The notes under the pieces: model-generated | The model's input: only the letters and a program-made list of their open reading frames with translations | Databases searched by the model: none | Told to the model about the DNA's origin: nothing | From: Gammaproteobacteria bacterium | GTDB lineage: Bacteria > Pseudomonadota > Gammaproteobacteria > Ga0077536 | Direction of reading: 5' to 3' | Length of the DNA: 64,000 nucleotides | Assembly (NCBI GenBank): GCA_009692265.1 | Contig: SHZM01000001.1 | Span: 19,363-83,362 of the forward strand | Shown here: in pieces, positions 7,335 to 23,034 of the stretch | How the letters are laid out: each line of letters starts with the position of its first letter | How positions within the stretch are numbered: the first letter of the stretch is position 1 | Position numbers and translations under genes: made by a program

Positions 7335-7859
7335 GGCGATCTCCCTGAGTGTTAAAACGGCGTGCTGCGTTCAATCCGGCGCAGGCCAGTATGCAAACGG
7401 TTGGTGAAGGTGGCGTGACGAGCTTACGGGAGACATGCGCGCCCGTGACGGTAATGGGTCTCGTTTGCGACCGTGCCTGAAAGTTGGATAGCCTTAGTGA
7501 TCGAGTACGAGTCACTATTCCTCCAAATTATTGGTTCTTCGATTCCTCCGGAATGTTCACGCGAATAGCATTCCGGGCAGCAGCGAACGCCGCGAAGGCG
7601 GAGTTCCGCGATAACCTATGCAAGACCAACGCCAGTCCGAGCGGGACGGAATTTTTCACCGAAAATCATAGGGTTAGCGAGAGCCCGAAATTTGTTTCAA
7701 AACGAGTTGTAAAAATCATGGACACGGAAGCCTGCGGGCGGGTTTCATCGGTGATCGCAAGCGACGAGTTTTTTTAGACGCTTCAAAGGGTTGGTGAAAG
7801 ATGCTCGGCAATAGCGGGCATATTACCGAGTCTATGATTTTTACAAGGATGTGGGTGAA

Positions 7860-7905
7860 TCCATCCTCCCCCTTTGCGAAGGGGGACTGAGGGGGATTTT
7901 CTTTC
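7860..7905 (-). repeat. REP/MITE-like GC-rich hairpin element (copy A, reverse orientation)
   Basis: Its reverse complement AAGAAAATCCCCCTCAGTCCCCCTTCGCAAAGGGGGAGGA shares a 25-nt identical core with copies at 10894 and 19254. It lies immediately 3' of the M14 gene that ends at 7907. Confidence 0.75.
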
Positions 7906-7906
7906 G

Positions 7907-9325
7907 TTACTCCACCTCGTCATAAATAAACAATGGGCCTTCGAGCAAACGACCGAAGGGGCGATAGCGAAACACGCTGCTCGCGGCACGCGGATCCAGC
8001 AGGAGTGGAATTATCCTTCGGCTCGGTTGCGCCAGAGGTATTCGCAGGGTACCTGGGTCGAGCACAACCTTGCCTGCCCACGGTTGCCAAGGCGAAGCGG
8101 CCTCCTCGGGTGAAATCCCTTTTGGGAACACTCGTGTCTGCACGCTTCGTCGCTCCGCGCGCGAAATAGTTTCGAATTTGATCCCGTGTCGTGCCAACAC
8201 CGCGCCGAACAAATTCACATGCGCGTTGATGACATACGCAGGCGGCAGGACAACCAGATCTTCGATCACGCAGGCACGGTGATCGGCAAACTGCCTCTCG
8301 ACTAACTCTCCAGTCGCATGCCGACGTAGCGGTATGCTGAGTTCCGGCATGTTTACGTTCGGCACGAAACGCGCGTTTAACGGGAGTTCACTTGGCACCT
8401 CACCGGCCGCGAGCTTAAGGACTTCTCTGATTTGCACTGCGCGTTCACTCACACAGGCCAAAAACACCTGCAAACACAGACGCTGCTTATCGACTCGCAC
8501 GCCGATATTGCGGTAGGTCGGATAGTGGCCCGCTTTGGGTTCCATCGGCGTTTCGAGCAGGATAGTCAGCGGCCCGCGGATCCCCGCTTTATTGCGGAAC
8601 TTGCGGATCGTGAAGCCGCCATGGGTGAGCGGTTGAGTGAGCGAGGTAATCTCACGGATATAACGCTGGGCGCGTAAGCCGCGCTGCGTAACACCTGCGA
8701 TTAAGGCCGGAAGTAACGTGCTTTCCAGATAGCGGCGGTTCACCGCCGGAATTGCCGGTGTATTCGCCACATCGAACTGCGCTTCGAAATCCGTCAAGTA
8801 ACCTTCGCGACCTAAAGTCTTGCTCTTGTAACTCGCCGACTCATGCGCATCGAGGATGACATCGGGCGCGAAATCGATCACCGCCGCATCGAGTGCGCAA
8901 CTCTCGGGCTGCGTCAGTAAGACATAGTCGCGATTGAGATTGACGTCGTTGCCGTTCTTGCTTGAATCGAGATCACGGCCGTCGGGGTTCGCGTTGGGAA
9001 TGAAGATCAGTTCCAGATCCTCAAGCAGTTCGCGCCGCTCGCCGAGCAGCACGTCGCGTGCGAGAAATAATAGCGCTTCACAGCCCGCCGCTTCCGAAGC
9101 GCCATGTTGCGAGCCGACCAGCATGACTCGCAGTTTCGCGGTGCGAAGCGGCTGCGCGCAAATCAAGGCCTGGAGTGGACGCCCCTGGGCTGAGCGCCCA
9201 AGGGTTTGCAGACGGGCAACCTTCGGCGCAAGCGCCGCGAGTTGTGCCAAATAGGCCGCGACGTCAGCCGAACTCGAATACGCCTGGAAACGCTGCGTTT
9301 CGAGCGGCGTCGGCGGTAGCTTCAC
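7907..9325 (-). CDS. M14 family zinc metallocarboxypeptidase (paralog 1, no signal peptide)
   Basis: 472 aa. M14 motifs present: GSQHGASEAAG (HxxE zinc site), IPNANPDGR, NLNRDY, DAHESAS, LETPME. The GTG start at 9325 overlaps the stop of the upstream paralog (GTGA). Confidence 0.75.
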   Translation of the reverse strand: MKLPPTPLETQRFQAYSSSADVAAYLAQLAALAPKVARLQTLGRSAQGRPLQALICAQPLRTAKLRVMLVGSQHGASEAAGCEALLFLARDVLLGERRELLEDLELIFIPNANPDGRDLDSSKNGNDVNLNRDYVLLTQPESCALDAAVIDFAPDVILDAHESASYKSKTLGREGYLTDFEAQFDVANTPAIPAVNRRYLESTLLPALIAGVTQRGLRAQRYIREITSLTQPLTHGGFTIRKFRNKAGIRGPLTILLETPMEPKAGHYPTYRNIGVRVDKQRLCLQVFLACVSERAVQIREVLKLAAGEVPSELPLNARFVPNVNMPELSIPLRRHATGELVERQFADHRACVIEDLVVLPPAYVINAHVNLFGAVLARHGIKFETISRAERRSVQTRVFPKGISPEEAASPWQPWAGKVVLDPGTLRIPLAQPSRRIIPLLLDPRAASSVFRYRPFGRLLEGPLFIYDEVE

Positions 9326-10884
9326 CGGAGGCGACGCGTCGCGCCTTTGTATGTGCGATAGACGAAGAAATCTTCCTCCGGTTGCACCAGCGCGGAATAC
9401 TCTGGGTAGCGAAAGATGCTGCTGGTCGAGCGCGGATCCAGCAATAACGCCGCGTAGCGTCCGTTGGGTTGCGTGAGATCGATGAACACACCGCCGGGTT
9501 CGATCTCGAGTGCGCGACGGTTTTCTGAAGTCATCTTCACTTGGTCGAGAATATTTGGCCGGCTCTCAAAACGCGCGGCGATGACGTCCGCGCTGGTGGG
9601 CTGGGTCAGACTCCAAAAACTAATGCCATGTCGTTCGAGCACATCGCGCAGCTTACCCACGTGTTGAGTGATGACCAGCATCGGCGGATAGGGGATCCGG
9701 TCGCCGGTCACCAGCTTTCGATGATCACGAAATTCAATCGACTCCAATTCGCGGGTATCGAGGCGGCGCATCGGGATTGAGACCTTTGGGTGCTCAGGAT
9801 CGACCACATAACCCGCGAACAAGGTAAGCGGCTCTTTATGCAAACCGCTGCGTGCCTCAACCACGCGGGTTGCGAGGATCGCCCGCCCCTCGTGCATCGA
9901 TTTAAGGAAGGTGCGAATGCACAGCAGCTGCCGCTCGACCCGCACCACGATATTGCGATACGTCGGGTAGGTGTCTTCGCGTGAATCGAGTTTGGTCTCC
10001 ACCAGAAACGAGATCGCGCCGCTCATGCCCGCGGTATTGCGGAAATTGCGCAGGGTCAGACCGCCGTGGGTGATCGGCTGTTTAAGGCTGATGATTTCGC
10101 CGATATAGCGATGCGCGGGCAATCCACCAGCGGTGACCCGTGCAATGAGTTCGGGCAACAAGGTCTGTAGCGCGTAGTCGCGCACCACGGCTGGCACGGA
10201 CGGGTTATTGCTGAATTCAAACTGCGCATCGAAATCGGTTAGGTAACCATCGCGCGCCAGAGTCTTGCGTTTCAGGACTGCGGATTCGTGCGAGTCCAGC
10301 ACGGCAGCGGGTCGATATTTTTCGAGCATGTCCTTGAGGATGCGGGTCTCCGGTTGCGACAGCAGGACAAAGTCGGTGTTGATATTGATGCCGTTGGCGT
10401 TCGCGCGCTTCTTATTATCGCGACCGTCGGGGTTCGCGTTCGGAATCAAAATCACATCGACATCGTCCAACAGCGGACGTAAGTCGCCCGCCACGAGTTC
10501 GCGCGCGATCACTAACAACGCTTCGCCACCTGCCGGCTCGGCGGCACCATGTTGTGAGCCGATCACCACGAGCTTCGGGCGTTTAAGTTCTTTCGATCGC
10601 TTTGTCTTTAAGACCAGGGCCTCGAGCACGCGTCCCTGTACTGACTTGCCGAGGTCGTCTTTACGCGCGAGGGTGGGGTAGTGCGCGACGATGGTGTCCA
10701 AGTACGTGGTGATCTCGGCGGAGGTGCTGATTCGAGAGTTTGCGTTCAGCTCGAGCGGCGTGAGCAGCGGGGGTGCGGCGTTCAGCTGTGAGGTGAACAG
10801 GAGTACCGTGACTAACGAAGGTAGGGTGCCGATTCTTGTGAGGTTGATCATGGTCGGTGTTTTACTCGAATTAATGGGTTTCAT
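9322..10884 (-). CDS. M14 family zinc metallocarboxypeptidase (paralog 2, with signal peptide)
   Basis: Paralog of the previous gene with the same motifs (GSQHGAAEPAGGEA, IPNANPDGRD, NTDFV, DSHESA, FLVETK). The N-terminus MKPINSSKTPTMINLTRIGTLPSLVTVLLFTSQLNAAP is signal-like. An alternative start at 10851 (MINLTR) is possible. The longer track ORF reaching 10968 reads through the REP element and was rejected. Confidence 0.7.
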   Translation of the reverse strand: MKPINSSKTPTMINLTRIGTLPSLVTVLLFTSQLNAAPPLLTPLELNANSRISTSAEITTYLDTIVAHYPTLARKDDLGKSVQGRVLEALVLKTKRSKELKRPKLVVIGSQHGAAEPAGGEALLVIARELVAGDLRPLLDDVDVILIPNANPDGRDNKKRANANGININTDFVLLSQPETRILKDMLEKYRPAAVLDSHESAVLKRKTLARDGYLTDFDAQFEFSNNPSVPAVVRDYALQTLLPELIARVTAGGLPAHRYIGEIISLKQPITHGGLTLRNFRNTAGMSGAISFLVETKLDSREDTYPTYRNIVVRVERQLLCIRTFLKSMHEGRAILATRVVEARSGLHKEPLTLFAGYVVDPEHPKVSIPMRRLDTRELESIEFRDHRKLVTGDRIPYPPMLVITQHVGKLRDVLERHGISFWSLTQPTSADVIAARFESRPNILDQVKMTSENRRALEIEPGGVFIDLTQPNGRYAALLLDPRSTSSIFRYPEYSALVQPEEDFFVYRTYKGATRRLR

Positions 10885-10893
10885 CGACCGAAT

Positions 10894-10962
10894 AAGAAAA
10901 TCCCCCTCAGTCCCCCTTTGACAAAGGGGTCGGCGCGCAGCGGCGGGGGACTTAGCGCGCAG
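10894..10962 (+). repeat. REP/MITE-like element (copy B, forward orientation)
   Basis: AAGAAAATCCCCCTCAGTCCCCCTTTGACAAAGGGGTCGGCGCGCAGCGGCGGGGGAC. It carries the same core as copies A and C. It sits between the bclA stop and the M14 paralog-2 start. Confidence 0.75.
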
Positions 10963-10967
10963 ATTCA

Positions 10968-12542
10968 CTACCCCGCCCGCAATCTGAACCGCTGAATCTT
11001 GCCGGTCGCCGTTTTCGGAAGCTCTGGGACAAATTCAAACCAGCGCGGGTACTTGTGTGGCGCAAGCTGCGTTTTCACATGCGCCTTCAATGCTGCTTCC
11101 AATTTCGGCACTCCGTGGCCCTTGCTCTTCAATACGACAAATGCTTTCGGTTTGATCAATCCCTCCGCGTCCGCCATGCCGACCACCGCCGCTTCGAGCA
11201 CGGCTGGGTGTGACATCAGCGCGGCTTCGACTTCGAACGGTGAAACGTATTGGCCGCTGACTTTGAGCATGTCGTCAGAGCGCCCACCGTAGGTGTAGTA
11301 GCCCTCCGCGTCGACCGTGTATTTATCACCCGCGCGGGTCCATGCGCCCATAAAGGTTTCACGCGATTTCTCGCGACTGTTCCAATACATCACGGCCGTG
11401 CTCGGACCGTTGATCTGGAGTTCGCCCAGACCAGGTCCCGTAATTTCTTGGCCTTGCTCATCGCACAGCCGGATTTGATAACCCGGGACGGGTTTACCCG
11501 TCGTACCGTAACGCACGTCGCCAGGCCGGTTCGATAAAAAAATATGCAACATCTCGGTCGAACCAATGCCGTCGAGGATGTCCACTCCAAAGTGGGCGGT
11601 AAAGCGTCGCCCGACGTCGGCGGGCAGCGCTTCACCCGCTGAGGTGCAGATCCGTAACGCGACTGTCGAGCGCTCGGGTAACCTTGGGCTCGCGAGCATC
11701 GCGGCATAGAGCGTCGGTACCCCGTAGAAAATCGACGGCTGCAAGTCGACCAGGCGTTTGAACACCGCCTCCGGGGTTGGCCGCTCGGCCATCAAGATCG
11801 CAGTGGCGCCAACCGCCAACGGGAACGTCAGGCTATTGCCTAGGCCATAGGCGAAAAATAATTTCGCGGCCGAGAACACCACATCCTGTTCAGTAATCCC
11901 GAGAATAGGACGTGCATACAGCTCAGCGGTGTGAAGCAAGCTCGAATGCACATGCACCGTACCCTTCGGGGGGCCGGTCGAACCGGAGGAGTACAGCCAG
12001 AAGCACACCTCACCCGCCGTGGTGTCGACCGGCTCGGCGGTGGGCTCGGCGGCCGCCATTAACTGGCCTAACACGGGATATCCATGTGCACCGGCCGTGG
12101 CAATAACATGCTTCAGCGATCGTGCTTCCGCGAGCGCCGGTGCAAACGTTTCCAGCAACGGTGCGGAAACGAACAGGGCTTTCGCGCAACTGTCGTCGAG
12201 CATGAAGCGGTAATCATCGCTGGTTAGCAGGGTATTCACCGCGATCGGTACGATCCCGGCTTTGATAGCGCCCAGGAACACGCTTGGAAAATCGATCGTG
12301 TCGTGTAGCGCGACCATAACCCGATCTTCGGGTTCAAGACCAAGCGCGCGCAGCGCATTGGCGGCACGATTCACGCGCGCGACTAGTTCGCCGTAAGAAT
12401 ACCGGCCGGCGTCATCGATATATGCGATTTTTTCGGCGCGGCCCGCCCGTAGGTTTCGTTCCAGGAGGTCATGCGCGGCGTTATAGCGACGCGGAATTTC
12501 AATCAACGGTGGCGAGACCGTGTGGTCGGCGCGAGACAACAT
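10968..12542 (-). CDS. bclA: Benzoate-CoA ligase family (aromatic acid:CoA ligase)
   Basis: 524 aa adenylate-forming enzyme with YSSGSTGPPKG, GTTGKP and a C-terminal ...KTATGKIQR. Length and motifs match the benzoate/4-hydroxybenzoate-CoA ligase family. It neighbours boxR/boxC/boxB. Confidence 0.8.
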   Translation of the reverse strand: MLSRADHTVSPPLIEIPRRYNAAHDLLERNLRAGRAEKIAYIDDAGRYSYGELVARVNRAANALRALGLEPEDRVMVALHDTIDFPSVFLGAIKAGIVPIAVNTLLTSDDYRFMLDDSCAKALFVSAPLLETFAPALAEARSLKHVIATAGAHGYPVLGQLMAAAEPTAEPVDTTAGEVCFWLYSSGSTGPPKGTVHVHSSLLHTAELYARPILGITEQDVVFSAAKLFFAYGLGNSLTFPLAVGATAILMAERPTPEAVFKRLVDLQPSIFYGVPTLYAAMLASPRLPERSTVALRICTSAGEALPADVGRRFTAHFGVDILDGIGSTEMLHIFLSNRPGDVRYGTTGKPVPGYQIRLCDEQGQEITGPGLGELQINGPSTAVMYWNSREKSRETFMGAWTRAGDKYTVDAEGYYTYGGRSDDMLKVSGQYVSPFEVEAALMSHPAVLEAAVVGMADAEGLIKPKAFVVLKSKGHGVPKLEAALKAHVKTQLAPHKYPRWFEFVPELPKTATGKIQRFRLRAG

Positions 12543-12559
12543 CAGGACTGGGTCGACCG

Positions 12560-13033
12560 TTAAAGCCGACGTAGCACTGCGGTCCAGACGTTCGCAACTC
12601 CGGGCAGGGTCGCGATGTCGGTACTACCGCTTAGCTCCGAGACCTCAGGCTGCCCATACCGACCCTGGTCCAGGCGATAACGAGTGACGCTGCGATCGGT
12701 GGGGTGCACCAGCCAATATTCGCGCACGCCGTGGCCTTCGTAGAGTGCGCGCTTGACGACCTGATCATGCGCGGCGGTGAACGGCGAGAGGATCTCCACA
12801 ATCCAATCCGATTGCACGACGGTATCGATTTCGTCGTCTGCTTCGTGGTGGCGAGGAAGTCGAATATCTAGCGGTGCGACGAATAAGCGGCTCGGCCCAT
12901 CACGTAATGCTTGATCAAGCTGACCAGCCATCGCGTAGGCGATCCCATCAATCAATTCGTAGCGGCGATTATCAGACCATGTGCAGTAATCGCCGTAGGT
13001 ATGTCGTTCATCATCGCGACGTGCAAGGCCCAT
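12560..13033 (-). CDS. Uma2 family (DUF820) restriction-endonuclease-fold protein
   Basis: The core YGDY..W...RRYELIDG...PLDIRL...DWIVEILSP...D..VK...Y...GV.EYWLV is typical of Uma2. The chosen start is the ATG at 13033; the track ORF extends to 13129. Some usual segments look shortened, so it may be degenerate. Confidence 0.55.
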   Translation of the reverse strand: MGLARRDDERHTYGDYCTWSDNRRYELIDGIAYAMAGQLDQALRDGPSRLFVAPLDIRLPRHHEADDEIDTVVQSDWIVEILSPFTAAHDQVVKRALYEGHGVREYWLVHPTDRSVTRYRLDQGRYGQPEVSELSGSTDIATLPGVANVWTAVLRRL

Positions 13034-13074
13034 ACTCGGCTCCGTATTCGTGTTTGCAAGTGCCCTAGTCAATC

Positions 13075-13551
13075 TTAAGCTGCGACGGCGTGCTCCGCAC
13101 GAACCAGCGCAAACCACGGGCCAATCCATGCTGCCGCAAATTCTTCCGGCATCAAACCCGCGGAAGCATCGTGTTCCAGCACTTCGCCGACTCTGCGCGC
13201 ACCTAACTTGGTCAGGATCTGATCGAAGCGACGGCCACCGAAGCAGTAAGTCTGCGCGTGCGATGAGTCCCCCAGCGAGACCAGGCCGTAGCGGATCCCA
13301 GTGAGATTGGGTCTGTCCTTGACTAGCGACTCGTAGAGCTTCTTGGCGTTGGCCGGCACATCGCCGTAGCCATAGGTGGACATACAGACTAAGTAGATCG
13401 CCGCTGGCTCGAACACCTTCGCGTCGAGCTCGTCCATTTGCAGGATCTCGCCTTGCGCACCCGCTTGTTGGAGATTGAAGTGGGCTTCTTCGGCGACGTA
13501 TTGGGTGTTGCCAGTGGTCGTGCCGACTAGGATCCGGACGGTAATCGCCAT
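13075..13551 (-). CDS. Flavodoxin, MioC-like FMN-binding protein
   Basis: ATG at 13551 gives MAITVRILVGTTTGNTQYVAEEA...STYGYGDVP.N, which aligns with E. coli MioC. The longer track ORF reaching 13635 was rejected because it reads into an AT-rich intergenic region. Confidence 0.75.
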   Translation of the reverse strand: MAITVRILVGTTTGNTQYVAEEAHFNLQQAGAQGEILQMDELDAKVFEPAAIYLVCMSTYGYGDVPANAKKLYESLVKDRPNLTGIRYGLVSLGDSSHAQTYCFGGRRFDQILTKLGARRVGEVLEHDASAGLMPEEFAAAWIGPWFALVRAEHAVAA

Positions 13552-13593
13552 GGGCTGTTGCTCCGAAAGGGTTGAAACGAAGGTAGAAAGTGA

Positions 13594-13637
13594 ATTATAT
13601 TTCATAAAATATTCTTCACAAGTATTATATTTCATAA
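13594..13637. promoter_or_regulatory. Candidate operator/promoter in the divergent flavodoxin-boxR intergenic region. Two perfect 14-bp direct repeats ATTATATTTCATAA (13594..13607 and 13624..13637) are spaced 30 bp apart.
   Basis: Seen directly in the sequence. This 93-bp AT-rich spacer between the divergent starts at 13551 and 13645 is the only AT-rich spot in the area. Confidence 0.4.
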
Positions 13638-13644
13638 GACTCCG

Positions 13645-14556
13645 ATGCCGCTTTCAGCCCAACCCAAGACTCTTGGTGCCGACTCCCTAGCGGAAGACGA
13701 CGCGGCGGCGCTCGCAGGTCTGGGCACTCGGATCCGTCAAGCCCGGGCGCGCCGTGGCATGACTCGCCGTGCATTAGCCCTGCATTCCGAGGTTTCAGAG
13801 CGCTACCTCGCGCACTTGGAAGGGGGTGAGGGAAATGCCTCGTTTCTGGTGCTGCGGCGAGTGGCGTTGGCGTTGAAATTGCCGCTTGCGGAGCTGGTCG
13901 ACGAGCGGCCCCCGGCCTCGATCGAATGGGCGCTGCTCGAACAGCTGCTAAAAGATCAACCAACCGCGAGCTTGCAGCGCATTCGCCATCAATTGCAGCG
14001 CGAAGTCGTTCATTCCGAGCACCTACGGGGTGCGCGGGTGGCGTTAATTGGCCTGCGCGGCGCGGGCAAATCGACCTTAGGCGCGCAAGTCGCAGCACAT
14101 CTTGATCGGCCGTTTATCGAACTCGATCGCGAAATAGAAGTAAGCGCCGGAGCGTCGTTAGAGGAGATTTTTTTGCTGTACGGGCAAGCCGGTTATCGTC
14201 GGCACGAGATGCGCTGCCTGCAGCGACTGATCGAAGAGACTCCACGCTGCGTGATCGCGACCGGCGGGAGCATTGTCTCGGAACCCGCAACCTATTCGCT
14301 GTTGCTCACGGCGTGCACGACCGTGTGGCTGAAAGCCTCCCCCGAAGAACATATGGCGCGCGTGGTCGCTCAAGGCGATCTGCGACCGATGAGTGGGAAC
14401 GCGGAGGCGATGGACGATCTGCGGCACATTTTGCTCGAACGCGCGGACCGTTACGCCCAGGCGGATTTCACCTTGGATACCACCGGCAAATCTCTTACTA
14501 CCACTTTCACTGCGTTGCTCGATCTGCTCAGCACGCCCCCCATCGCCAAGGAGTGA
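13645..14556 (+). CDS. boxR: BoxR/BzdR-type transcriptional regulator (N-terminal HTH-XRE fused to a shikimate-kinase-like effector domain)
   Basis: 303 aa. N-terminal XRE HTH (IRQARARRGMTRRALA...SERYLAHLEGG). C-terminal shikimate-kinase fold with P-loop (LIGLRGAGKSTLG...IATGGSIV). This architecture is specific to BzdR/BoxR, and the gene sits directly upstream of boxC-boxB. Confidence 0.8.
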   Translation: MPLSAQPKTLGADSLAEDDAAALAGLGTRIRQARARRGMTRRALALHSEVSERYLAHLEGGEGNASFLVLRRVALALKLPLAELVDERPPASIEWALLEQLLKDQPTASLQRIRHQLQREVVHSEHLRGARVALIGLRGAGKSTLGAQVAAHLDRPFIELDREIEVSAGASLEEIFLLYGQAGYRRHEMRCLQRLIEETPRCVIATGGSIVSEPATYSLLLTACTTVWLKASPEEHMARVVAQGDLRPMSGNAEAMDDLRHILLERADRYAQADFTLDTTGKSLTTTFTALLDLLSTPPIAKE

Positions 14557-14560
14557 CCCA

Positions 14561-16240
14561 ATGAGTGCTGCCGCCGTATCTCCAACAAGTCCTGAATATG
14601 TCACCTTCGACCGACACCCTGATCACTATGCGCATTGGCGCCTGAGCAGTGACGGCGCGGTCGCGACGTTGGCGCTGGATGTGGCCGAGGATAAGGGGCT
14701 GAAACCGGGTTATAAGCTCAAGCTGAATTCCTACGATCTCGGGGTCGACATCGAACTTTACGACGCGCTGCAACGCATTCGCTTCGAACATCCCCAAGTG
14801 AAAGTAGTGGTGATCACCAGCGCCAAGGACCGCATGTTCTGCTCGGGCGCGAATATCTACATGCTTGGCCTGTCGAGTCACGCGTGGAAAGTGAATTTCT
14901 GCAAGTTCACGAATGAAACGCGCAACGGAATCGAAGATTCGTCGCGCCACAGTGGGCTGAAATTCCTCGCCGCCGTAAACGGCACGGTCGCGGGCGGCGG
15001 CTACGAACTCGCGCTCGCCTGCGATGAGATCCTGATGGTTGACGATCGCTCTTCCACCGTGAGTTTGCCGGAAGTACCGTTACTCGGCGTACTGCCGGGC
15101 ACTGGTGGCTTAACGCGGATCATCGATAAACGTAGGGTCCGGCGCGATCTCGCGGACTTCTTCTGTACGACCAGTGAAGGCGTGCGTGGTGATCGGGCCA
15201 AGCTGTGGGGCTTGGTTGATCACATCGCTAAACCCCAGCAGTTCAAGGACGCCACTGCCGCGCACTTACAGCGCTTGATCGACGCGAGTACGCGACCAGC
15301 GGCGAGTGCGGGTATTGCGCTAACCCCGCTCGCACGGGTCATCGACGACGCCGGCATTCATTATTCACACGTCGACGTGCGCCTGGATCGCACGCAACGC
15401 ACCGCCACGATCATCGTCACTGCGCCCACCACCGCTGCTGTGCTGTCGCTCGCGGAGATCCACTCGCGCGCTGCTGCCTGGTGGCCACTGGCGATGGCGC
15501 GCGAACTCGATGACGCGATCCTGCTCCTGCGTTTGAATGAACTCGATATCGGCACCTGGATTTTGCAGACTCGCGGAGATCCCTTTGCGGTCCTCGCACT
15601 CGATGCGACCCTCGAAGCACACCAGACCGATTGGTTCGTGCATGAAACCATCGGCATGCTGCGAAGAACCTTCGCGCGGCTTGATGTGTCATCACGGACC
15701 CTGTACGCGTTGCTCGACGAAGGCTCGTGCTTCACGGGCACCTTGGCTGAACTCGCCCTCGCGGCCGATCGCAGCTTCATGTTGCAATGGCCGGACGAGC
15801 CCGAACGAGCGCCGCACCTTACGTTGTCGCACGTGAATTTTGGGCTGTATCCGATGGTGAATTATCAGAGTCGGATACAGACGCGATTCTGTAGTGACCC
15901 CGTGCCGGTCGCGCGCGTACACGCGAAAATCGGCACGGCGTTGGACGCCGCCGCCGCGCTTGAACTCGGCCTCGTCACGTTTGCACCCGACGATCTCGAT
16001 TGGGCCGACGAGGTGCGCCTCGCGCTTGAGGAGCGCACGAGTTTGTCGCCGGACGCGCTCACCGGCATGGAAGCTTCGTTGCGCTTCGGCGGTGCCGAGA
16101 CCTTAGAAACTCGGATATTTAGTCGGCTGTCGGCGTGGCAGAACTGGATCTTCATTCGCCCGAACGCTGTCGGCGAGCACGGCGCGCTGAAGGTCTTCGG
16201 CACCGGCCGCAAGGCGCAATTTAATTGGGAGCGGGTTTAA
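14561..16240 (+). CDS. boxC: 2,3-epoxybenzoyl-CoA dihydrolase BoxC (crotonase superfamily)
   Basis: ATG at 14561 preceded by AAGGAG. About 559 aa with an enoyl-CoA hydratase fold (AAVNGTVAGGGYELALACDEI), which matches the size and type of BoxC. It lies between boxR and boxB. The upstream extension in the 615-aa track ORF overlaps boxR and was rejected. Confidence 0.8.
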   Translation: MSAAAVSPTSPEYVTFDRHPDHYAHWRLSSDGAVATLALDVAEDKGLKPGYKLKLNSYDLGVDIELYDALQRIRFEHPQVKVVVITSAKDRMFCSGANIYMLGLSSHAWKVNFCKFTNETRNGIEDSSRHSGLKFLAAVNGTVAGGGYELALACDEILMVDDRSSTVSLPEVPLLGVLPGTGGLTRIIDKRRVRRDLADFFCTTSEGVRGDRAKLWGLVDHIAKPQQFKDATAAHLQRLIDASTRPAASAGIALTPLARVIDDAGIHYSHVDVRLDRTQRTATIIVTAPTTAAVLSLAEIHSRAAAWWPLAMARELDDAILLLRLNELDIGTWILQTRGDPFAVLALDATLEAHQTDWFVHETIGMLRRTFARLDVSSRTLYALLDEGSCFTGTLAELALAADRSFMLQWPDEPERAPHLTLSHVNFGLYPMVNYQSRIQTRFCSDPVPVARVHAKIGTALDAAAALELGLVTFAPDDLDWADEVRLALEERTSLSPDALTGMEASLRFGGAETLETRIFSRLSAWQNWIFIRPNAVGEHGALKVFGTGRKAQFNWERV

Positions 16241-16259
16241 CCCCCTCTGAAGAAACCCG

Positions 16260-17681
16260 ATGAGCATCAACTACAGCGAACGCATTCCGAATAATGTGAA
16301 CCTCGCGAGCGATCGCACCTTGCAACGTGCGCTGGAACACTGGCAGCCACGCTTTCTTGAGTGGTGGCAGGAAATGGGTCCGACCGACTTTCAGGGCAAC
16401 GAAGTCTATTTGCGCACCGCTGTCGGCGTGGATGTCGAAGGCTGGGCGAGTTACGGCGAAGTGAAAATGCCCGACTATCGCTGGGGCATTTTTCTCGCCG
16501 ATGCGGTCCCGGAGCGCACTATCGGGTTCGGCGACATGCTCGGACAACCAGTGTGGCAACAGGTCCCGGGTGAATTTCGCTCGCAGTTTCGACGCCTGAT
16601 CGTGACTCAGGGCGACACCGAGCCCGCCTCGGTCGAACAGCAGCGGCTACTCGGCCTGACCTGCCCATCGCTCTACGATTTACGCAATCTATTTCAGGTG
16701 AATGTCGAGGAAGGTCGGCATTTATGGGCGATGGTGTATCTGCTGCACGCCTACTTCGGTCGCGATGGACGCGAAGAAGCGGAAGAACTGTTAGCACGCC
16801 ATTCGGGGGATGCCGACAAGCCGAGAATATTAGGCACCTTCAACGAACCGATCTCGGACTGGCTGTCGTTTTTCTGTTTTACGTATTTCACTGATCGCGA
16901 CGGCAAGTATCAGCTTAAGAGTCTCGCGGAATCGGCCTTCGATCCGCTGGCGCGAACTTGTCGCTTCATGTTGACCGAGGAAGCGCACCATATGTTTGTC
17001 GGCGAAACCGGCCTGAGTCGGGTTATCCGCCGGACATTGGAATTGATCAAGGAACTCGGCACCGACGACTCGGCCGCGATTCAGCACGCGGGCGGGATGG
17101 ACTTTCCGTTATTACAACGATATCTGAATTTTTGGTTCACCTCCTCGCTAGATCTGTTTGGCTCGGAGGTTTCCTCGAACGCCGCGACCACCTTCGCGAA
17201 CGGGATCAAGGGGCGGCCGGATGAAACCTTGTACACCGATCATCACTGCCTTGAAACGGCCTTTGAATTAGCGATCCCCGATGACAATGGCGGAGCGAAA
17301 CTCGACTCCGTGCCGATGCGCAACGCGATGAACGAAGTCGCGCGCCAGGCCTACATCAAAGATTGCGAAATGGGCTTGAAGCGCTGGAACATGATGATCA
17401 AGCGCGCCGGGGTGGCGGTCGAACTTGCGCTACCGTCGAGCCGCTTTCGCCGCGGCATCGGCGCGTGGTATGGCGTTCCGACCGATCTCCAAGGTAATCG
17501 TATTAGCCCCGAAGCCTACCGTCACGGCCTCACCCAGTGGCTACCCGGCGAGCAAGATCGTATCCACGTGCATAGCCTGATGCGGTGTGTTACCACTCCA
17601 GGAAAGATGGCCGGGTGGATCGCGCCGCCCGACCGTGGCGTGAATAATCTGCCGGTGGCTTATGAGTATGTGCGGTTATGA
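16260..17681 (+). CDS. boxB: Benzoyl-CoA 2,3-epoxidase (oxygenase) subunit BoxB, diiron enzyme
   Basis: 473 aa, matching the length and sequence character of BoxB (EEGRHLWAMVYLL...EEAHHMFVGE diiron ligands). It follows boxC by 19 nt. Confidence 0.85.
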   Translation: MSINYSERIPNNVNLASDRTLQRALEHWQPRFLEWWQEMGPTDFQGNEVYLRTAVGVDVEGWASYGEVKMPDYRWGIFLADAVPERTIGFGDMLGQPVWQQVPGEFRSQFRRLIVTQGDTEPASVEQQRLLGLTCPSLYDLRNLFQVNVEEGRHLWAMVYLLHAYFGRDGREEAEELLARHSGDADKPRILGTFNEPISDWLSFFCFTYFTDRDGKYQLKSLAESAFDPLARTCRFMLTEEAHHMFVGETGLSRVIRRTLELIKELGTDDSAAIQHAGGMDFPLLQRYLNFWFTSSLDLFGSEVSSNAATTFANGIKGRPDETLYTDHHCLETAFELAIPDDNGGAKLDSVPMRNAMNEVARQAYIKDCEMGLKRWNMMIKRAGVAVELALPSSRFRRGIGAWYGVPTDLQGNRISPEAYRHGLTQWLPGEQDRIHVHSLMRCVTTPGKMAGWIAPPDRGVNNLPVAYEYVRL

Positions 17682-17690
17682 ACCAACCTG

Positions 17691-18200
17691 CTATGTAGAG
17701 GCATCAAGCTGAAAAACGATGATCGGGATGCCGCGCTCGCCCGCTCTATCGCGGTAATTTTCGAATCCCGGATAGATCGAAAGCGCTTTGCGCCATAGAC
17801 GATTGTGCTCCTCGCCCAAGGCGACTTCAGTCGCGTGGTAGCGACCGTGCACACCATAAAAATCTAACTCGACTTCGGGGTTCGCGCGAACATTGAATAG
17901 CCAGCCGGGATGCGTGGTTCGTCCCCAATTCGCGGCCAACACGACGATGTCGTCGCCATCCTGGATCCCAATTAATGGCACCTTCCGGTGCTCACTACTG
18001 CGCGCACCAACCATCGACAAACCTACGACGGGAAGTCCGACTACCGCGCGTGGAATTGACCAATGTTGTCGCGTCGCGGCCATCAACACGCGATCGACGT
18101 GATGTAGTACCTTGGCGAGGGCCGCCGCGCCGCGAGGCGAAGCTGGGAAAGATTGGAATGAGCGCTGCCAATCGTGTTGCCGTACGGCTATTTGCGTCAT
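17691..18200 (-). CDS. Deazaflavin (F420H2)-dependent oxidoreductase, nitroreductase family (DUF385/FDOR-type split barrel)
   Basis: ATG at 18200 gives 169 aa. It contains the family signature HPGWLFNVRANPEVELDF...YH.TEV...E.NRLW.....YPGFENY......IPIIVFQLD. The 218-aa track ORF extends upstream without support. Confidence 0.7.
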   Translation of the reverse strand: MTQIAVRQHDWQRSFQSFPASPRGAAALAKVLHHVDRVLMAATRQHWSIPRAVVGLPVVGLSMVGARSSEHRKVPLIGIQDGDDIVVLAANWGRTTHPGWLFNVRANPEVELDFYGVHGRYHATEVALGEEHNRLWRKALSIYPGFENYRDRAGERGIPIIVFQLDAST

Positions 18201-18371
18201 GTTGCACCTCCGTGCGCTTTTTGTAATCGAAATCCTAGATCTTGGGCTAGACTGCCGCGCGGACCGTGACGAGAAACGGTGCGGCGCAAGTCCGTGCAGT
18301 AAAAGTAGCAGCAGGGTTTCGATCGGTCCGCAGGCTCGGTCACACAATTTAACTTTCTAGAGGAGATTTTC

Positions 18372-19238
18372 ATGTCGCAGGTCGCATTTAAGCTCGGTGT
18401 CCTCAAACTTGGCTGCATTGGCGCGGCACCCTTGCTCGATTTATTGCTCGACGAGCGTGCGGATCGCGACGATCTGGAAGTTCGTGCGTACACCTGCGGT
18501 GCGAAATTAGATGCAGCCTCCTGTGCCGACCCGACCCGCGAGATCCTGGCGTATCGCCCACAGTTGGTCTTGTTAGTCAGCCCCAATGCTTCGCTCGCCG
18601 GGCCAACGAATTCGCGAAAGCTTCTCGGTGAAGCGGGGATCCCGATCATCACATTGTCCGATGGCCCGTCTAAAAAAGCCTTCTTCAAGAAAAACGACGA
18701 GGGCAAACAGGTTAAACAAGTCCCGCCCGGTCAGGGTTTCATGATCTTTCCGGCCGATTCGATGATCGGCGCACGCCGCGAATTTCTCGATCCGACCGAG
18801 ATGTCGTTGTTTAACGCCGATGTGATCAAAGTGCTCGCCGCGAGTGGTGTACTGCGGCTGGTTCAAACTGAACTCGATAGCGTGATTGAAGCGCTCAAAG
18901 CGGGAACTACGCCAACTTATCCCAACGTGACGGTCACGCCGGAGAAGGCAGTCGCCGCCGGCGGATTCGGCAATCCGTATGCGGCAGCGAAAGCGTATGC
19001 CGCACTCTCGATCGCGGAAGCCGTCTCCGCGGTGACCACCGATGGTTGTTTTAAGGAACAAGACCCACAACGCTACATTCCGATGGTCGCGGCCGGCCAT
19101 GAAATGATGCGGATGGCGGCGCGGTTGGCCGATGAAGCGCGGGAGCTGGAGAAAGGTGCGAATAGTCTATTGCGCACCCCGCATGGTGCTGATGGCTCCG
19201 TGCGCAGTAAGCGTGGGTTGGCGGATAAACCTGAATAA
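18372..19238 (+). CDS. F420-dependent methylenetetrahydromethanopterin dehydrogenase (Mtd) family protein, i.e. an archaeal-type Mtd homolog
   Basis: 288 aa with very strong similarity to methanogen Mtd along its whole length: KLGCIGAAPLLDLLLDERADR, MIGARREFLDPTEM, NADVIKVLAASGVLRLVQ, NPYAAAKA, GCFKEQDPQRYIPMVAAGHEMMRMAARLADEARELEKGANSLLRTPHG. Confidence 0.75.
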   Translation: MSQVAFKLGVLKLGCIGAAPLLDLLLDERADRDDLEVRAYTCGAKLDAASCADPTREILAYRPQLVLLVSPNASLAGPTNSRKLLGEAGIPIITLSDGPSKKAFFKKNDEGKQVKQVPPGQGFMIFPADSMIGARREFLDPTEMSLFNADVIKVLAASGVLRLVQTELDSVIEALKAGTTPTYPNVTVTPEKAVAAGGFGNPYAAAKAYAALSIAEAVSAVTTDGCFKEQDPQRYIPMVAAGHEMMRMAARLADEARELEKGANSLLRTPHGADGSVRSKRGLADKPE

Positions 19239-19253
19239 ACGCGTCGAGAGTTC

Positions 19254-19350
19254 AAGAAAATCCCCCTCAATCCCCCTTTTTCGAAGGGGGAGGACTACCG
19301 ACTCACCCCCTTTGAAAAAGGGGGTCATCGCGCAGCGGCGGGGATTTTTC
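19254..19350 (+). repeat. REP/MITE-like element, full-length copy C with about 9-bp terminal inverted repeats (AAAATCCCC ... GGGGATTTT) and two internal hairpins. It lies between convergent genes and is a probable bidirectional terminator.
   Basis: AAGAAAATCCCCCTCAATCCCCCTTTTTCGAAGGGGGAGG...TCACCCCCTTTGAAAAAGGGGGTCATCGCGCAGCGGCGGGGATTTTTC. It shares both modules with copies A and B. It starts 16 nt after the mtd-like stop and abuts the aldolase stop at 19350. Confidence 0.75.
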
Positions 19351-20099
19351 TATTTCAATGCCTCGCGCACCGCACTCGCACCCTGTCGCAGAAACAGTGT
19401 ATCCACACCGCACGCGATGAAAGTAAAGCCCGCCGCGATGCGCGGAATGACCCACTCCGGCGAGGTTGCGAAAAAACCCAACGTTAGGTTCGCGGCCAAA
19501 GTAACATCCGCGACCCGCTTAATCGCGGCCACGACTTCGGGATGGTCGAGTTGCCCCAGCCGGCCCATGCTCGCGGATAAATCGTAGGGGCCGACAAACA
19601 CCGAATCGAGCCCGGGTACCTGCACGATCGCCTCGATGTTATGAACAGCGTCGATGTGCTCGGCTTGTACAATCACGGCGGTCTCGTCATTCGCACGCGC
19701 GACGTATTCGGCAACCGCATAACCATACCCGTTCGCACGCGCAACCCCGACCCCGCGCCGTCCTTGCGGTGGAAACTTCGCGCCGGCCACGATCGCCGCC
19801 GCCTGCTCCGCAGTATTCACCTGCGGGACGATTATCCCAGCGGCACCGGCATCGAACGCACGCTTGATCCCGATCTCGTCGTGATTCGGCAAACGAACCA
19901 CGCACGGCAGGCCGTGCGCAGCGATGATCAGGTGTTGCAGTTCAGCCGGTCCGACCGGCGCGTGTTCGGTTTCCAGGAATAACCAATCGAAGCCGCATCC
20001 CGCTAAAACTTCTATCGCTTCGGGCGATGCGAGGCTTGCGATTGTGCCGATCAATACCTCGCGTTGTCGCAGTCGTGCGCGAAATGAAAGCTCACTCAT
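19350..20099 (-). CDS. HpcH/HpaI aldolase family protein (2-keto-3-deoxy-acid aldolase type)
   Basis: 249 aa with the TIM-barrel aldolase pattern (DWLFLETEHAP...AAGIIVPQVNTAEQA..IV...KFPPQGRRG). Its start overlaps the upstream gene's stop (ATGA). Confidence 0.7.
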   Translation of the reverse strand: MSELSFRARLRQREVLIGTIASLASPEAIEVLAGCGFDWLFLETEHAPVGPAELQHLIIAAHGLPCVVRLPNHDEIGIKRAFDAGAAGIIVPQVNTAEQAAAIVAGAKFPPQGRRGVGVARANGYGYAVAEYVARANDETAVIVQAEHIDAVHNIEAIVQVPGLDSVFVGPYDLSASMGRLGQLDHPEVVAAIKRVADVTLAANLTLGFFATSPEWVIPRIAAGFTFIACGVDTLFLRQGASAVREALK

Positions 20100-20899
20100 G
20101 CCTCGACCTTAAATGCTTTCGTCCACTCCTTGCCTTGCGAGTCGATGACATCGGCTTTCAGTTCGCCGCCCTTATGTGGCTTGAAAAAGAACCGAAAGCT
20201 CGGGTCCTCGCTGATCGAGATCCCAGTTTCCGCCGTCATAATCAGCGCATCGTTGAAATACAGTTTCCACGATTTCACGAAATGGGCCGGCCGAATCAAC
20301 TGTGTTTTCTGATCCTTTTGCATACCAGTGATGTTCGGATGCGAGAGCATCAACTGCCCGATGATGGCGTCCTCCGGCGTGCGCTCACCGACGGTGCGGA
20401 AATTGATTTGACCGATGCGTTCCATCGCCGCCTGCAGATCCGAGCCCAACGGTGCGGAACACCCGCCTTGGGCCTTCACGAAGTTACTCACGATGTGATG
20501 CTCGCCCGAGTTCAACACTGCAATCGCACGCACGTTAGTGTAATTGTCGATCCGGATCCTGAGCGCCAAATCGGCGCGTCCGATTTCGGGAGTAAGGTTA
20601 AATACGCCGGCTAGCGGCTCGGGATTATTATCGACAACGAGGTAGATTTTTTCGATGAAGCGTTCCGCGGTTTGCGGAAACTGAGCGCGAATGGTGACTG
20701 GGGTGAACGCCGCGTCTTCCGCGCGATAAGGCGTTTTCATTTCGATGACCGTGGTGTCTTCGATTAACACCTTGTCGGCGAAGTACTTGGGTTTGAGGAA
20801 AGTAGCCCACACATCGACCGGGGATTGCTCGGCGGCGATGACCGATTGCGCTATCAGCCCGCCGAGGAATATCCCTAAAACCGGGAACCTAACCATCAT
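20096..20899 (-). CDS. SoxY-SoxZ fusion (SoxYZ-like sulfur-carrier) periplasmic protein
   Basis: ATG at 20899 after GGAG. Signal peptide MMVRFPVLGIFLGGLIAQSVIAAEQ. The SoxY-like half ends in the carrier motif VKAQGGCS. The SoxZ-like half is IRPAHFVKSWKLYFNDALIMTAE...FRFFFKP. This resembles quinoprotein-dehydrogenase-associated SoxYZ-like carriers. Confidence 0.55.
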   Translation of the reverse strand: MMVRFPVLGIFLGGLIAQSVIAAEQSPVDVWATFLKPKYFADKVLIEDTTVIEMKTPYRAEDAAFTPVTIRAQFPQTAERFIEKIYLVVDNNPEPLAGVFNLTPEIGRADLALRIRIDNYTNVRAIAVLNSGEHHIVSNFVKAQGGCSAPLGSDLQAAMERIGQINFRTVGERTPEDAIIGQLMLSHPNITGMQKDQKTQLIRPAHFVKSWKLYFNDALIMTAETGISISEDPSFRFFFKPHKGGELKADVIDSQGKEWTKAFKVEA

Positions 20900-21069
20900 G
20901 AAATACTCCAGCAATTGACGTACCGCGGAATGCCAAGCATCGATTTTGACCGCTGACCGAGGCGATAATTCACTCCGGCTCTACCTTTCAAGGTCTCGTT
21001 CGCAGGGATTGTATCGACTGCGTCGGCTCAAGACCAAGACGTTCGTCCAAATCTCACTGGTGGCGAGAA

Positions 21070-22032
21070 TCAGTCATTGAAATGGCGGTACCCGGTGGTG
21101 GGCAACTGCATGGGGCGGCCCTCGGTGTCTAGCAGACTCACGATGCCGGGTGCTGCCGTCATTACGCCGATCGGGTATAGCGGCACGCTTGACCTTGTTG
21201 TGGCCATTAAGTCTGCCATGCGATCCGAAGGCACGGTGAAGCACAACTCGTAGTCATCGCCGCCAGTCGCCGCCAAGGTAAGGAGTTCACGGCCCTCAAA
21301 CAGGCTGCTGAGCGCTGTGGATCTTGGAATTCGTGATGCCTGGATTTCAGCGCCACAGTGGCTTCGTTCCGCGAGATGACCAACGTCCGCCAGCAACCCA
21401 TCCGAGATATCGATACAACTCGTGGCCACGCCGCGCAGCGCGACCCCAAGCGACACGCGCGGGCTCGGCCGCGCAAAACGATTGATCAAGGATTTCGCAG
21501 CCTCGCTAAATTGCGCGCCGCGTTGTAATAGCGCGAGTCCCCCGGCGGCATCGCCCAAGGTACCGGAAACACACACCAGATCTCCCGGGCGCGCGCCGTG
21601 CCGAGTCAAGGCCTGTCCAGTGGGAATGCCGCCGATGATCTGCACGGTGATGGTGAGCGGACCTCGCGTGGTGTCGCCGCCGATCAAGCTGCTGTGAAAG
21701 GGCGCGAGTGCTTCGTGCAAGCCGCGCGCGAATTCGCCTAGCCAGCGTTCATCGTTGTCCGGAACGGTTAAGGCGAGGGTTGCCCAACGTGGTTCGGCAC
21801 CCATCGCGGCGATGTCGCTTAAATTGACTGCGACGGCGCGGTAGCCGATGTCGGTGGGATCAAGTTCCGCGGGGAAATGTACGCCGGCGACGAGGGTGTC
21901 GGCGACGATGACGAGTTCTTCACCGGGTAGTGGACGCACTACCGCGCCATCGTCGCCGATGCCGAGGATGACGTCTGAACGTGCGCCGCCTAGCGGTTTG
22001 AATAGGGCTTCGATTAGGGCGAATTCATTCAT
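21070..22032 (-). CDS. thiL: Thiamine-monophosphate kinase
   Basis: 320 aa ThiL-like (AIR-synthase-related fold; DDGAV...VADTLVAGVHF). The ATG overlaps the nusB stop (ATGA), as in the nusB-thiL operon. Confidence 0.9.
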   Translation of the reverse strand: MNEFALIEALFKPLGGARSDVILGIGDDGAVVRPLPGEELVIVADTLVAGVHFPAELDPTDIGYRAVAVNLSDIAAMGAEPRWATLALTVPDNDERWLGEFARGLHEALAPFHSSLIGGDTTRGPLTITVQIIGGIPTGQALTRHGARPGDLVCVSGTLGDAAGGLALLQRGAQFSEAAKSLINRFARPSPRVSLGVALRGVATSCIDISDGLLADVGHLAERSHCGAEIQASRIPRSTALSSLFEGRELLTLAATGGDDYELCFTVPSDRMADLMATTRSSVPLYPIGVMTAAPGIVSLLDTEGRPMQLPTTGYRHFND

Positions 22033-22508
22033 GAAAATCCCCCCGAAAATCCCCCCGCCGCGGGTTCAGCGTGCGCGTTCTGTTCAACCGTGCGGAGGGC
22101 GCGCGCGACTTTGTCCAACACGCCGTTGACGTACTTGTGTGCTTCGTCGGCACCGAACATCTTGCACAGTTCGATTGCCTCGTTGACGACGACGCGCCAT
22201 GGAATTTGCGGGCAAAAGCGTAGTTCGTAGGTGCCGACCAGTAGCACGCTGCGTTCCACCGGACCTAGCTTCATCCAGTCGCGATCGAGTGCGGGGCGAA
22301 TATCTTGCAGCAGAATCTCGATTTGATTCGGGATCTCGCGGGTCAGGGTCGAAAAATATTCGAGGTTGACGCGGACGAGTTCACGTTCGGCAACGAATTC
22401 GCGCAGAATTTCATTCGGATCCTGTCCGGCGAGCTGCCATTGATACAACGCTTGAACGGCACAGCGACGCGCTCGAATTCTTCCTTCATGCCCACCGGTT
22501 TTGCTCAT
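22029..22508 (-). CDS. nusB: Transcription antitermination factor NusB, with an unusual C-terminal extension
   Basis: The NusB core is ARRCAVQALYQWQLAG...YVNGVLDKVA. About 20 extra residues follow, ending GGFSGGFS. That tail is encoded by the duplicated REP fragment at 22031..22062. Confidence 0.9.
   Translation of the reverse strand: MSKTGGHEGRIRARRCAVQALYQWQLAGQDPNEILREFVAERELVRVNLEYFSTLTREIPNQIEILLQDIRPALDRDWMKLGPVERSVLLVGTYELRFCPQIPWRVVVNEAIELCKMFGADEAHKYVNGVLDKVARALRTVEQNAHAEPAAGGFSGGFS
22031..22062 (-). repeat. REP/MITE-like element fragment (copy D) carrying a tandem duplication of GAAAATCCCCCC. It lies inside the nusB 3' end and thiL start.
   Basis: GAAAATCCCCCCGAAAATCCCCCCGCCGCGGG matches the reverse complement of the right end of copy C (GCAGCGGCGGGGATTTTTC). 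Confidence 0.6.
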
Positions 22509-22513
22509 TCGCG

Positions 22514-22987: not shown

Positions 22988-23034
22988 AAGGGCGTTCACG
23001 TCAGGTTGGAGGAGAAAAGAAACGTAGTCATCGT

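Follow-up and report, generated by a model that had tools for sequence, protein, structure and literature searches.

Whether inverted repeats that bracket a pair of genes are the ends of a unit that once moved, or independent arrivals beside genes that stayed in place, is the question raised by a 64,000-nt stretch of contig SHZM01000001.1 (assembly GCA_009692265.1, Gammaproteobacteria bacterium), hereafter the window, in which copies of a short GC-rich repeat flank two tandem genes for M14 zinc carboxypeptidases. An initial annotation had described four copies of a family resembling repetitive extragenic palindromic sequences (REPs) or MITEs (miniature inverted-repeat transposable elements), and had judged the geometry of the flanking pair compatible with MITE-mediated mobilization of the M14 genes. 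We find three copies, and think it probable that they arose when a repeat module of ~35 nt, of the intrastrand-triplex kind and in the class of the BoxC, PIT and TMECO elements, was inserted independently at each place; the direct observations behind this reading are the architecture of the module, the mirror covariation within it, its presence in many phyla and the module-free orthologous sites of relatives. The core of the repeat, the 22-mer AAAATCCCCCTCA(G/A)TCCCCCTT with 21 specified bases, occurs exactly at 7879-7900 (- strand), 10897-10918 (+) and 19257-19278 (+), where shuffled sequence gives an expectation of 0.00, and C-run/G-run hairpins (C5TTT/AAAG5) number four across the three sites, two of them in copy C, against 0.07 expected. 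The proposed short, extragenic, hairpin-bearing repeat family is thereby borne out, as is its siting at gene 3' ends or a convergent junction, all three copies lying 0-17 nt from a stop codon. A search of positions 7000-23000 against Rfam (E up to 10) gave no match at the copies.

Each module of about 35 nt is built from a Y-arm (T C5 TT(T)), a loop of 3-5 nt, an R-arm ((A)AA G5 A), a linker of ~3 nt and a third strand (A G5 A TTT). Copy A, which begins 3 nt past the stop of the first M14 gene (Table 1), has the 34-nt sequence TCCCCCTTTGCGAAGGGGGACTGAGGGGGATTTT and comprises the Y-arm TCCCCCTT (7867-7874), loop TGCG, R-arm AAGGGGGA (7879-7886), linker CTG and third strand AGGGGGATTTT (7890-7900), so that the order TCCCCCTT-tgcg-AAGGGGGA-ctg-AGGGGGATT gives eight allowed triplets; because its G-form lies on the + strand directly after that stop, the M14 mRNA bears the C-form. 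Copy B, in the 116-bp spacer between the stop of the AMP-binding gene (10968) and the start of the second M14 gene (10851), consists of an end AAGAAAATCCCCCT, linker CAG and hairpin CCCCTTT-GAC-AAAGGGG (10913-10929), followed by a long linker of 15 nt, TCGGCGCGCAGCGGC, and GGGGGA, and on the - strand it reads as a complete module of hairpin, CTG and AGGGGGATTTT. Copies A and B form the inverted pair that had been noticed, and that geometry is real: 36 nt, 89% complementary and 2990 nt apart. In copy C a left module (19254-19291) is joined by a right hairpin, ACCCCCTTT-GAA-AAAGGGGGT (19305-19325), with a 14-nt linker before the third strand and end, GGGGATTTTTCT (19340-19351). Its ends AGAAAATCCCC...GGGGATTTTTCT are complementary at 11 of 12 positions, in agreement with the terminal inverted repeats and two hairpins first ascribed to it, and it folds far more stably than shuffled sequence both as RNA (z = -4.3 and -3.6) and as DNA (z = -5.2 and -4.5). 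It occupies the convergent junction between the stop of the methylene-H4MPT dehydrogenase (MTD) gene (19238) and that of the HpcH-family gene (19350-19352).

The decisive feature is the outer run, which is the mirror image of the hairpin arm and neither its complement nor a direct copy. Across 206 modules of 52 distinct types, the mirror fit beats the direct-repeat fit in 21 of the 22 asymmetric types; a finer typing into 131 distinct types, 34 of them asymmetric, gives mirror runs of 6-8 nt in 33 of these, with a mean anchored run of 6.9 nt against 4.9 +/- 0.14 and 5.3 +/- 0.17 for two kinds of shuffle, a mean that none of 5000 shuffles reached. Natural variants such as AAATCTCCCC-taa-CCCCTCTTT, TCCTCCCCC-ac-CCCCTCCTTT and TCCCTCTC-aa-TCTCCCTTT illustrate the pattern, and where the halves of an inverted pair are unlike, each third strand tracks its own hairpin rather than the opposite end. 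Of 101 hairpins that had not been selected with the query, 87 have a mirror third strand of 6 nt or more, with a linker of 3 nt in 65 of the 87, its sequence free (TAA, CAA, CAG, CTG and others), and a conserved AAAT tail. To our knowledge no copying process produces a mirror image. Since a mirror pattern is what base triplets require, we place the outer run as the third strand of triplets, and identify the AAAATCCCCC end as a third strand mirroring its adjacent hairpin arm, the defining feature of the repeat, overlooked in the initial annotation.

These data support a model where, once the G-rich strand is single-stranded, a hairpin would form, against whose purine arm the third strand would then fold in antiparallel direction, making 8-9 triplets of the purine motif (G.G-C, A.A-T, T.A-T), while the complementary C strand could adopt the pyrimidine-motif equivalent (C+.G-C and T.A-T) with its third strand parallel. 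The triplet rule for an antiparallel third strand is obeyed family-wide by the mirror covariation. The Y-, R- and reverse-Hoogsteen blocks of the ITxF/PIT class II definition (stems of 6-15 nt with at most one mismatch, loops of 1-6 nt, a linker of ~3 nt being typical of this family) are present in the window modules: copy A has TCCCCCTT / AAGGGGGA / AGGGGGAT(T) with 8 allowed triplets, the same holds for the left module of copy C, and the - strand of copy B has a 7-bp stem with third strand AGGGGGATTT and one imperfect outer position. First and second loops measure 4 and 3 nt in copy A, 5 and 3 in the left module of copy C, and 3 and 3 on the - strand of copy B. The mirror repeat within the module, TCCCCCT-CAA-TCCCCCT, follows the same triplet rules as H-DNA mirror repeats, but is fused to a Watson-Crick hairpin partner on one strand, and because that partner is on the same strand the triplex would be possible within a single strand without unpairing a long duplex. 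For the window consensus the fold is a prediction from covariation and from the precedent of TMECO, and selection would appear to preserve it.

That precedent is set out by Holder et al. 2015 (PMC4666352), whose description of TMECO is accompanied by a review of BoxC (1990s) and of the PIT elements (Hoyne and Maher 2000). According to this work TMECO/BoxC has the form CCCTCNCCC-N3-6-GGGNGAGGG-N3-GGGNGAGGG in which stems are 9 nt and the second loop 3 nt long, and its triplex is very stable in vitro (circular dichroism, nuclear magnetic resonance, melting temperatures of 70-82 C); the elements are always intergenic, without strand bias, occur in palindromic pairs too, have no transposase nearby, are associated with local rearrangements and gave neither promoter nor terminator activity in earlier tests. 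They are reported from proteobacteria only, and many triplex motifs rich in G/C are described from cyanobacteria (PMC4666352). The window family shares the layout of Y-arm, 3-6-nt loop, R-arm, 3-nt second loop and reverse-Hoogsteen strand with stems of ~9 nt, class II on the G strand and the pyrimidine-motif class on the other, and likewise its intergenic siting without strand bias, its occurrence alone and in palindromic pairs, the lack of a transposase nearby and an association with local rearrangement or indels, copies A and B standing at synteny break points. It differs in its consensus, T C5 TTT / AAA G5 A / A G5 A TTT, in which the A/T tails are conserved and uninterrupted C5/G5 runs replace the CCCTCNCCC / GGGNGAGGG / GGGNGAGGG of TMECO, and in its occurrence in at least 17 phyla, on plasmids and on phage-like contigs; moreover, the TMECO triplex has been tested in vitro, whereas that of the window family is predicted from sequence. 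Neither AAAGGGGG nor GGGGGATT appears in the TMECO supplement lists of PMC4666352, the window sequence does not appear in the text of that paper, and a literature search by literal sequence found no paper. The window elements would therefore be a second, far more widely distributed intrastrand triplex family, of known layout and different consensus.

Its spread was assessed by scanning one genome per species for the exact core, which turned up in no fewer than 120 genome stretches belonging to at least 17 phyla, among them cultured isolates and closed chromosomes, an outcome at odds with a genome-specific, REP-like nature. Among the matches listed, record titles name Thiothrix, Thiomargarita, Methylococcales, Acinetobacter lwoffii, Nitrotoga and Gallionella within the Gamma- and Betaproteobacteria, and the other groups represented there are Thermodesulfobacteriota, Nitrospirota, three Chloroflexota classes, Elusimicrobiota, Patescibacteria, Poribacteria, Zixibacteria, Binatota, Deferribacterales, Pirellulales, Gemmatimonadales, Desantisbacteria, Fermentibacteria, Omnitrophota and Acidobacteriota. 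The core is also present in 14 viral-contig stretches, and related copies lie on Acinetobacter, Pseudanabaena and Allocoleopsis plasmids, at positions without an annotated feature; in 5426 E. coli genomes no match covered at least 80% of the family's 40-mer. The loci share only the ~35-nt module (AAAAT-C5-T, short linker, T-C5-TTT, loop, AAA-G5-A), their flanks being unrelated, and the unit comes in four arrangements: solo, in convergent inverted pairs (39 of 128, most commonly about 78 nt long), in opposite-facing pairs spaced by 10-30 nt (32 of 128), and embedded in larger lineage-specific repeats. By crude open reading frame (ORF) calls, 109 of 146 placeable modules are intergenic (78 in tandem, 20 in convergent and 11 in divergent spacers), and with respect to transcription they show no preferred orientation (43 to 35), which fits a feature acting at the level of DNA. 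Several nonautonomous elements seem to reuse the module as a building block.

Two sets of loci are described here in their own right. Embedded modules from other phyla stand at the apex of a GTAAGTTCTCAATAA...TTATTGAGA.GTTAC inverted repeat, within a GTTTTTGAAAAATAT-ended repeat and elsewhere in a 165-nt tandem unit (first group L009, L011, L019, L033, L046, L072, L079, L086, L097 and L112; further loci L094/L101/L116/L056 and L016/L108/L109/L114/L118). In phage-like contigs (set L128-L141), 10 of 26 modules have a G-form end ...TTGAGGGGGATTTT followed within 12 nt by the ATG or GTG of an ORF of at least 80 aa, an arrangement seen in only 10 of 215 modules at bacterial loci; examples are the loci L130, L135, L136 and L141 and, in sequence, gggggattttAAAAATG and the arrangement ...UUGAGGGGGAUUUUAAAAUG. 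The third strand there occupies the Shine-Dalgarno position, and for that reason phage-like contigs may use the module as an intergenic unit that combines a hairpin with a ribosome-binding site (RBS).

Because no target-site duplication is visible and no mobility gene recurs nearby, we favor a DNA-level structural repeat that is spread in trans. The modules would then move without leaving a target duplication, and would probably be carried between hosts by plasmids and phages; by analogy with E. coli BoxC they may either flag sites of local rearrangement or favor it. Where an inverted pair has A- and T-tails, as copy C does, it could in addition act as a bidirectional terminator-like hairpin. 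A bolder version, which we hold only tentatively, is that the module is a horizontally mobile unit carried almost unchanged across at least 17 phyla by plasmids and phages, with a triple-helical single-stranded DNA (ssDNA) fold under selection in vivo and co-opted in phage-like contigs as a hairpin with a Shine-Dalgarno sequence; if that were true, the fold might serve as substrate for a mobilizing or replication-associated enzyme. Intrastrand triplex repeats of the BoxC/PIT kind were recognized 25 years ago, and there is still no agreement on their function and no known route by which they spread. The natural variants described here reveal a third strand that co-evolves with its hairpin as a mirror, which the E. 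coli elements did not offer, and this co-evolution is evolutionary evidence that a triple-helix-compatible arrangement, beyond a hairpin, is maintained.

Several points weigh against this reading. The second loop is 14-15 nt long in the right module of copy C and on the + strand of copy B, far more than the ~3 nt usual in the family or the 1-6 nt by which such motifs are defined. In vivo dimethyl sulfate probing of TMECO gave no support for a stable triplex (PMC4666352), and a physical triplex is known for TMECO only, that of the window consensus being predicted. The covariation counts are partly dependent, as variant modules multiply by copying, and the signal comes from about 8-10 variant classes; the statistics on gene position depend on the crude ORF calls mentioned above. 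For the copy number in the source genome, the sole hint is the indirect one that an independent assembly breaks inside copy C.

Among the alternatives, the one that survives best is that the modules are kept mainly as RNA signals, either intrinsic (possibly bidirectional) terminators or stabilizers of mRNA 3' ends, which we regard as possible but doubtful. The closeness of the three window copies to stop codons speaks for it, as do two annotated plasmids on which a module lies 10 and 19 nt past a stop codon, and at other loci modules are somewhat rarer in divergent spacers, which by the same ORF calls make up 20% of intergenic base pairs but hold 10% of modules. On both strands of copy C, in particular, a long GC-rich hairpin stands between an A-tract and a T-tract, with the U-run adjoining the outer stem AGAAAAUCCCC/GGGGAUUUUUCU, and the copy resembles a bidirectional intrinsic terminator at a convergent junction; for these reasons a terminator or stabilizer role is plausible for copy C, and for it alone, though less likely than not. 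However, copies A and B have no stem-adjacent U-run (in solo modules it lies about 10 nt from the hairpin), a scan for consensus terminators reported none of the three copies, the orientation relative to transcription is unbiased, copy B sits in a junction that is translationally coupled in relatives, and the E. coli PIT/BoxC elements are reported to be without terminator or promoter activity (PMC4666352). Conservation also exceeds what termination needs, and a stem model leaves unexplained why the third strand mirrors its own hairpin. The terminator or stabilizer role put forward in the initial annotation is structurally plausible for copy C only.

Less probable by some distance is a REP/REPIN system maintained by a cognate REP-associated tyrosine transposase (RAYT, an IS200-like Y1 enzyme) of the source genome, an account we consider improbable. 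Modules of ~35 nt that are extragenic, form hairpins, occur as inverted doublets at gene 3' ends and leave no target duplication are indeed reminiscent of REPs, bacterial interspersed mosaic elements (BIMEs) and REPINs, and an HUH enzyme that acts specifically on single strands would be well suited to read a folded ssDNA module. The GTAG/GTGG tetranucleotide expected at the foot of the palindrome is nevertheless missing, a linker of ~3 nt of free sequence standing in its place; the core is identical across at least 17 phyla, whereas a REP family is confined to a lineage and evolves together with its RAYT; no cognate RAYT was seen, and the 8 kb around each of 120 loci held no recurrent Y1 transposase-like ORF; and mirror covariation is foreign to REPs. 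More generally, the 2471 ORFs of these 8-kb neighborhoods yielded no transposase-like cluster and no mobility gene that recurs, the clusters being generic ones (GGDEF, ABC, sigma-54), and no autonomous insertion sequence (IS) with matching ends; no transposase was found among the window proteins scanned, and neither 37 inverted pairs nor the window copies are surrounded by a consistent direct repeat. The modules do share with MITEs (Correia/NEMIS, ERIC, RUP, Nezha) a noncoding, multicopy nature and, in the form of copy C, terminal inverted repeats, and MITEs too can carry terminator or RBS-like signals; but a 35-nt module differs from elements of 100-400 bp, has no target-site duplication and no parent IS that was found, and in other genomes the two apparent terminal repeats of a module pair are often different variants. 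Copy A is solo and has no second end. What stands of the REP/MITE-like description is the hairpin repeat; the hallmarks of a MITE were lacking at the 37 inverted pairs and the 120 loci.

Composite or MITE-type mobilization, in which copies A and B would be the inverted ends of a 3-kb cassette that imported the M14 genes, is very unlikely to be correct, even though the inverted pair described above does lie just outside both genes. The closest homologs of the first M14 protein (56-68% identity) come from Gammaproteobacteria metagenome-assembled genomes and Immundisolibacter, and six relative loci of 7-17 kb each were compared (L122-L127, L124 being a second assembly of the L123 region). The tandem pair is kept in all six, and the surrounding order of enoyl-CoA hydratase, HTH/SKI regulator, flavodoxin, AMP-binding ligase, M14, M14, MaoC, dehydratase, PNPOx and APH in four (L122, L123, L126, L127), with different neighbors in Immundisolibacter (L125); no module was found in any of the six loci. 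In L123 and L126 the stop of the ligase gene overlaps the start of the second M14 gene, and in L123 MaoC follows the first M14 gene after 6 bp; junctions of this kind, with a 4-bp gene overlap upstream and 6 bp downstream, leave no room for modules. As relatives keep the pair without modules, and some of their junctions could not hold one, the bracketing is a coincidence of two insertions beside an old, vertically inherited pair. The proposal of a mobilized M14 cassette, for which the same pair in the same place without flanking elements had been named beforehand as the refuting outcome, is accordingly abandoned, the family's lack of target-site duplications and of nearby transposases pointing the same way.

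Last, chance resemblance of low-complexity C-run/G-run sequence without common origin, which the compositional simplicity of the motif and a fourth "copy" amounting to a coding-region 12-mer duplication might suggest, is scarcely credible given three occurrences of the 22-mer where none is expected, 21 specified bases identical in at least 120 unrelated stretches, and an architecture and linker length that are consistent in query-unselected hairpins. That fourth copy, claimed at 22031, is not borne out: it is a duplicated 12-mer GAAAATCCCCCC without a hairpin, which encodes the NusB end ...AAGGFSGGFS*, and is not counted as an element copy, although it could be a remnant of an element end. The string AAATCCCCC is found 5 times in the window where 0.37 are expected, which is the ground for considering a remnant. 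As a separate observation, NusB extends ~23 residues past its Pfam domain to end in the GGFSGGFS that derives from the duplicated GAAAATCCCCCC (window 22029-22100), a tail that may have arisen by absorption of an element end at the nusB-thiL junction.

Table 1. Location of the repeat copies, the rejected fourth copy and adjoining genes in the window
Feature	Position	Strand	Remark
Copy A, solo module	7864..7903	+	G-form on + strand (class II triplex layout)
Copy B, collapsed inverted pair	10894..10950	+	Single hairpin
Copy C, full inverted module pair	19254..19351	+	Two hairpins
Tandem GAAAATCCCCCC x2, no hairpin	22033..22056	+	Inside nusB 3' coding end, abuts thiL ATG
M14 zinc carboxypeptidase paralog 1 (472 aa)	7907..9325	-	Flanked gene, outside element
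M14 zinc carboxypeptidase paralog 2 (509 aa, from ATG at 10851)	9322..10851	-	Flanked gene, outside element
AMP-binding ligase	10968-12542	-	
F420-type methylene-H4MPT dehydrogenase (MTD; PF01993)	18372-19238	+	
HpcH-family aldolase	19350-20099	-	

Other structures that the sequence might adopt were considered and set aside. A G-quadruplex or i-motif would have only two G- or C-runs per strand in each module and three in a pair, and such folds do not demand a mirror placement of interruptions. In asymmetric variants (CTCCCC vs GAGGGG, for instance) the third strand and the purine arm cannot form Watson-Crick pairs. The long linker of 15 nt common to copies B and C gave only a 13-15-mer at the equivalent intergenic site of Immundisolibacter, with no similarity beyond it and thus a chance GC-rich match, and a metagenome scan for this long-linker variant returned one chance match in a coding region and no further copies.

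The surroundings of the M14 pair differ from those in the relatives. Directly beyond copy A lies a block of ~4.3 kb, particular to the window and absent from all syntenic relatives (4122-7334, 3589-3795), which encodes proteins of 657 and 391 aa that share internal periodic repeats of ~165-177 nt, together with a 68-aa TPP_enzyme_N (TPP-enzyme) fragment; the 657-aa protein matches no Pfam family, and the NCBIfam matches of the block's proteins are weak. A Uma2-family gene upstream of the ligase is likewise found in the window only. Copies A and B thus stand at synteny break points, B having probably opened a formerly overlapping gene junction, and this siting fits the instability reported for BoxC, to which it is linked by analogy and as a correlation only. 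Annotators may note that such modules break assemblies, give rise to spurious "hypothetical proteins" and mark breaks in synteny; around genes that have nothing to do with them they can pass for transposon ends, as they did with the M14 pair. At the site equivalent to copy A, L126 carries after its first M14 gene a different REP-like inverted pair (5328-5433, starting GTAGGTCGGATAAGCGGAGCGTAATCCGAC), as though extragenic repeats from more than one family were drawn to this intergenic site. For the second M14 gene, an in-frame ATG located just after copy B, 11 codons upstream of the start that was called, is a further candidate for the true start (window 10852-10884, ATGAAACCCATTAATTCGAGTAAAACACCGACCATG).

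Farther along, positions 12560-19238 hold an aerobic benzoyl-CoA (box) cluster with BoxB at 16260-17681 (TIGR03225, 731 bits), an enoyl-CoA-hydratase-domain protein, an HTH/shikimate-kinase-like regulator, a flavodoxin and the AMP-binding ligase, and the neighborhood also holds the F420-dependent methylene-H4MPT dehydrogenase (PF01993) and, by ENA gene calls, an F420H2 quinone reductase-family gene. The M14 peptidases are conserved beside the box cluster in relatives, and its pairing with F420 genes is unusual in a gammaproteobacterium-like genome. Beyond 23 kb the part of the window that was scanned is core chromosome (riboflavin genes, glyA, mfd, pyrF, rpsA, aroA, pheA, gyrA), and at 45710-45856, in the spacer between the gyrA start and the preceding IF-2B-family gene, there is a further inverted repeat, with 31-nt arms that are 84% complementary and 85 nt between them.

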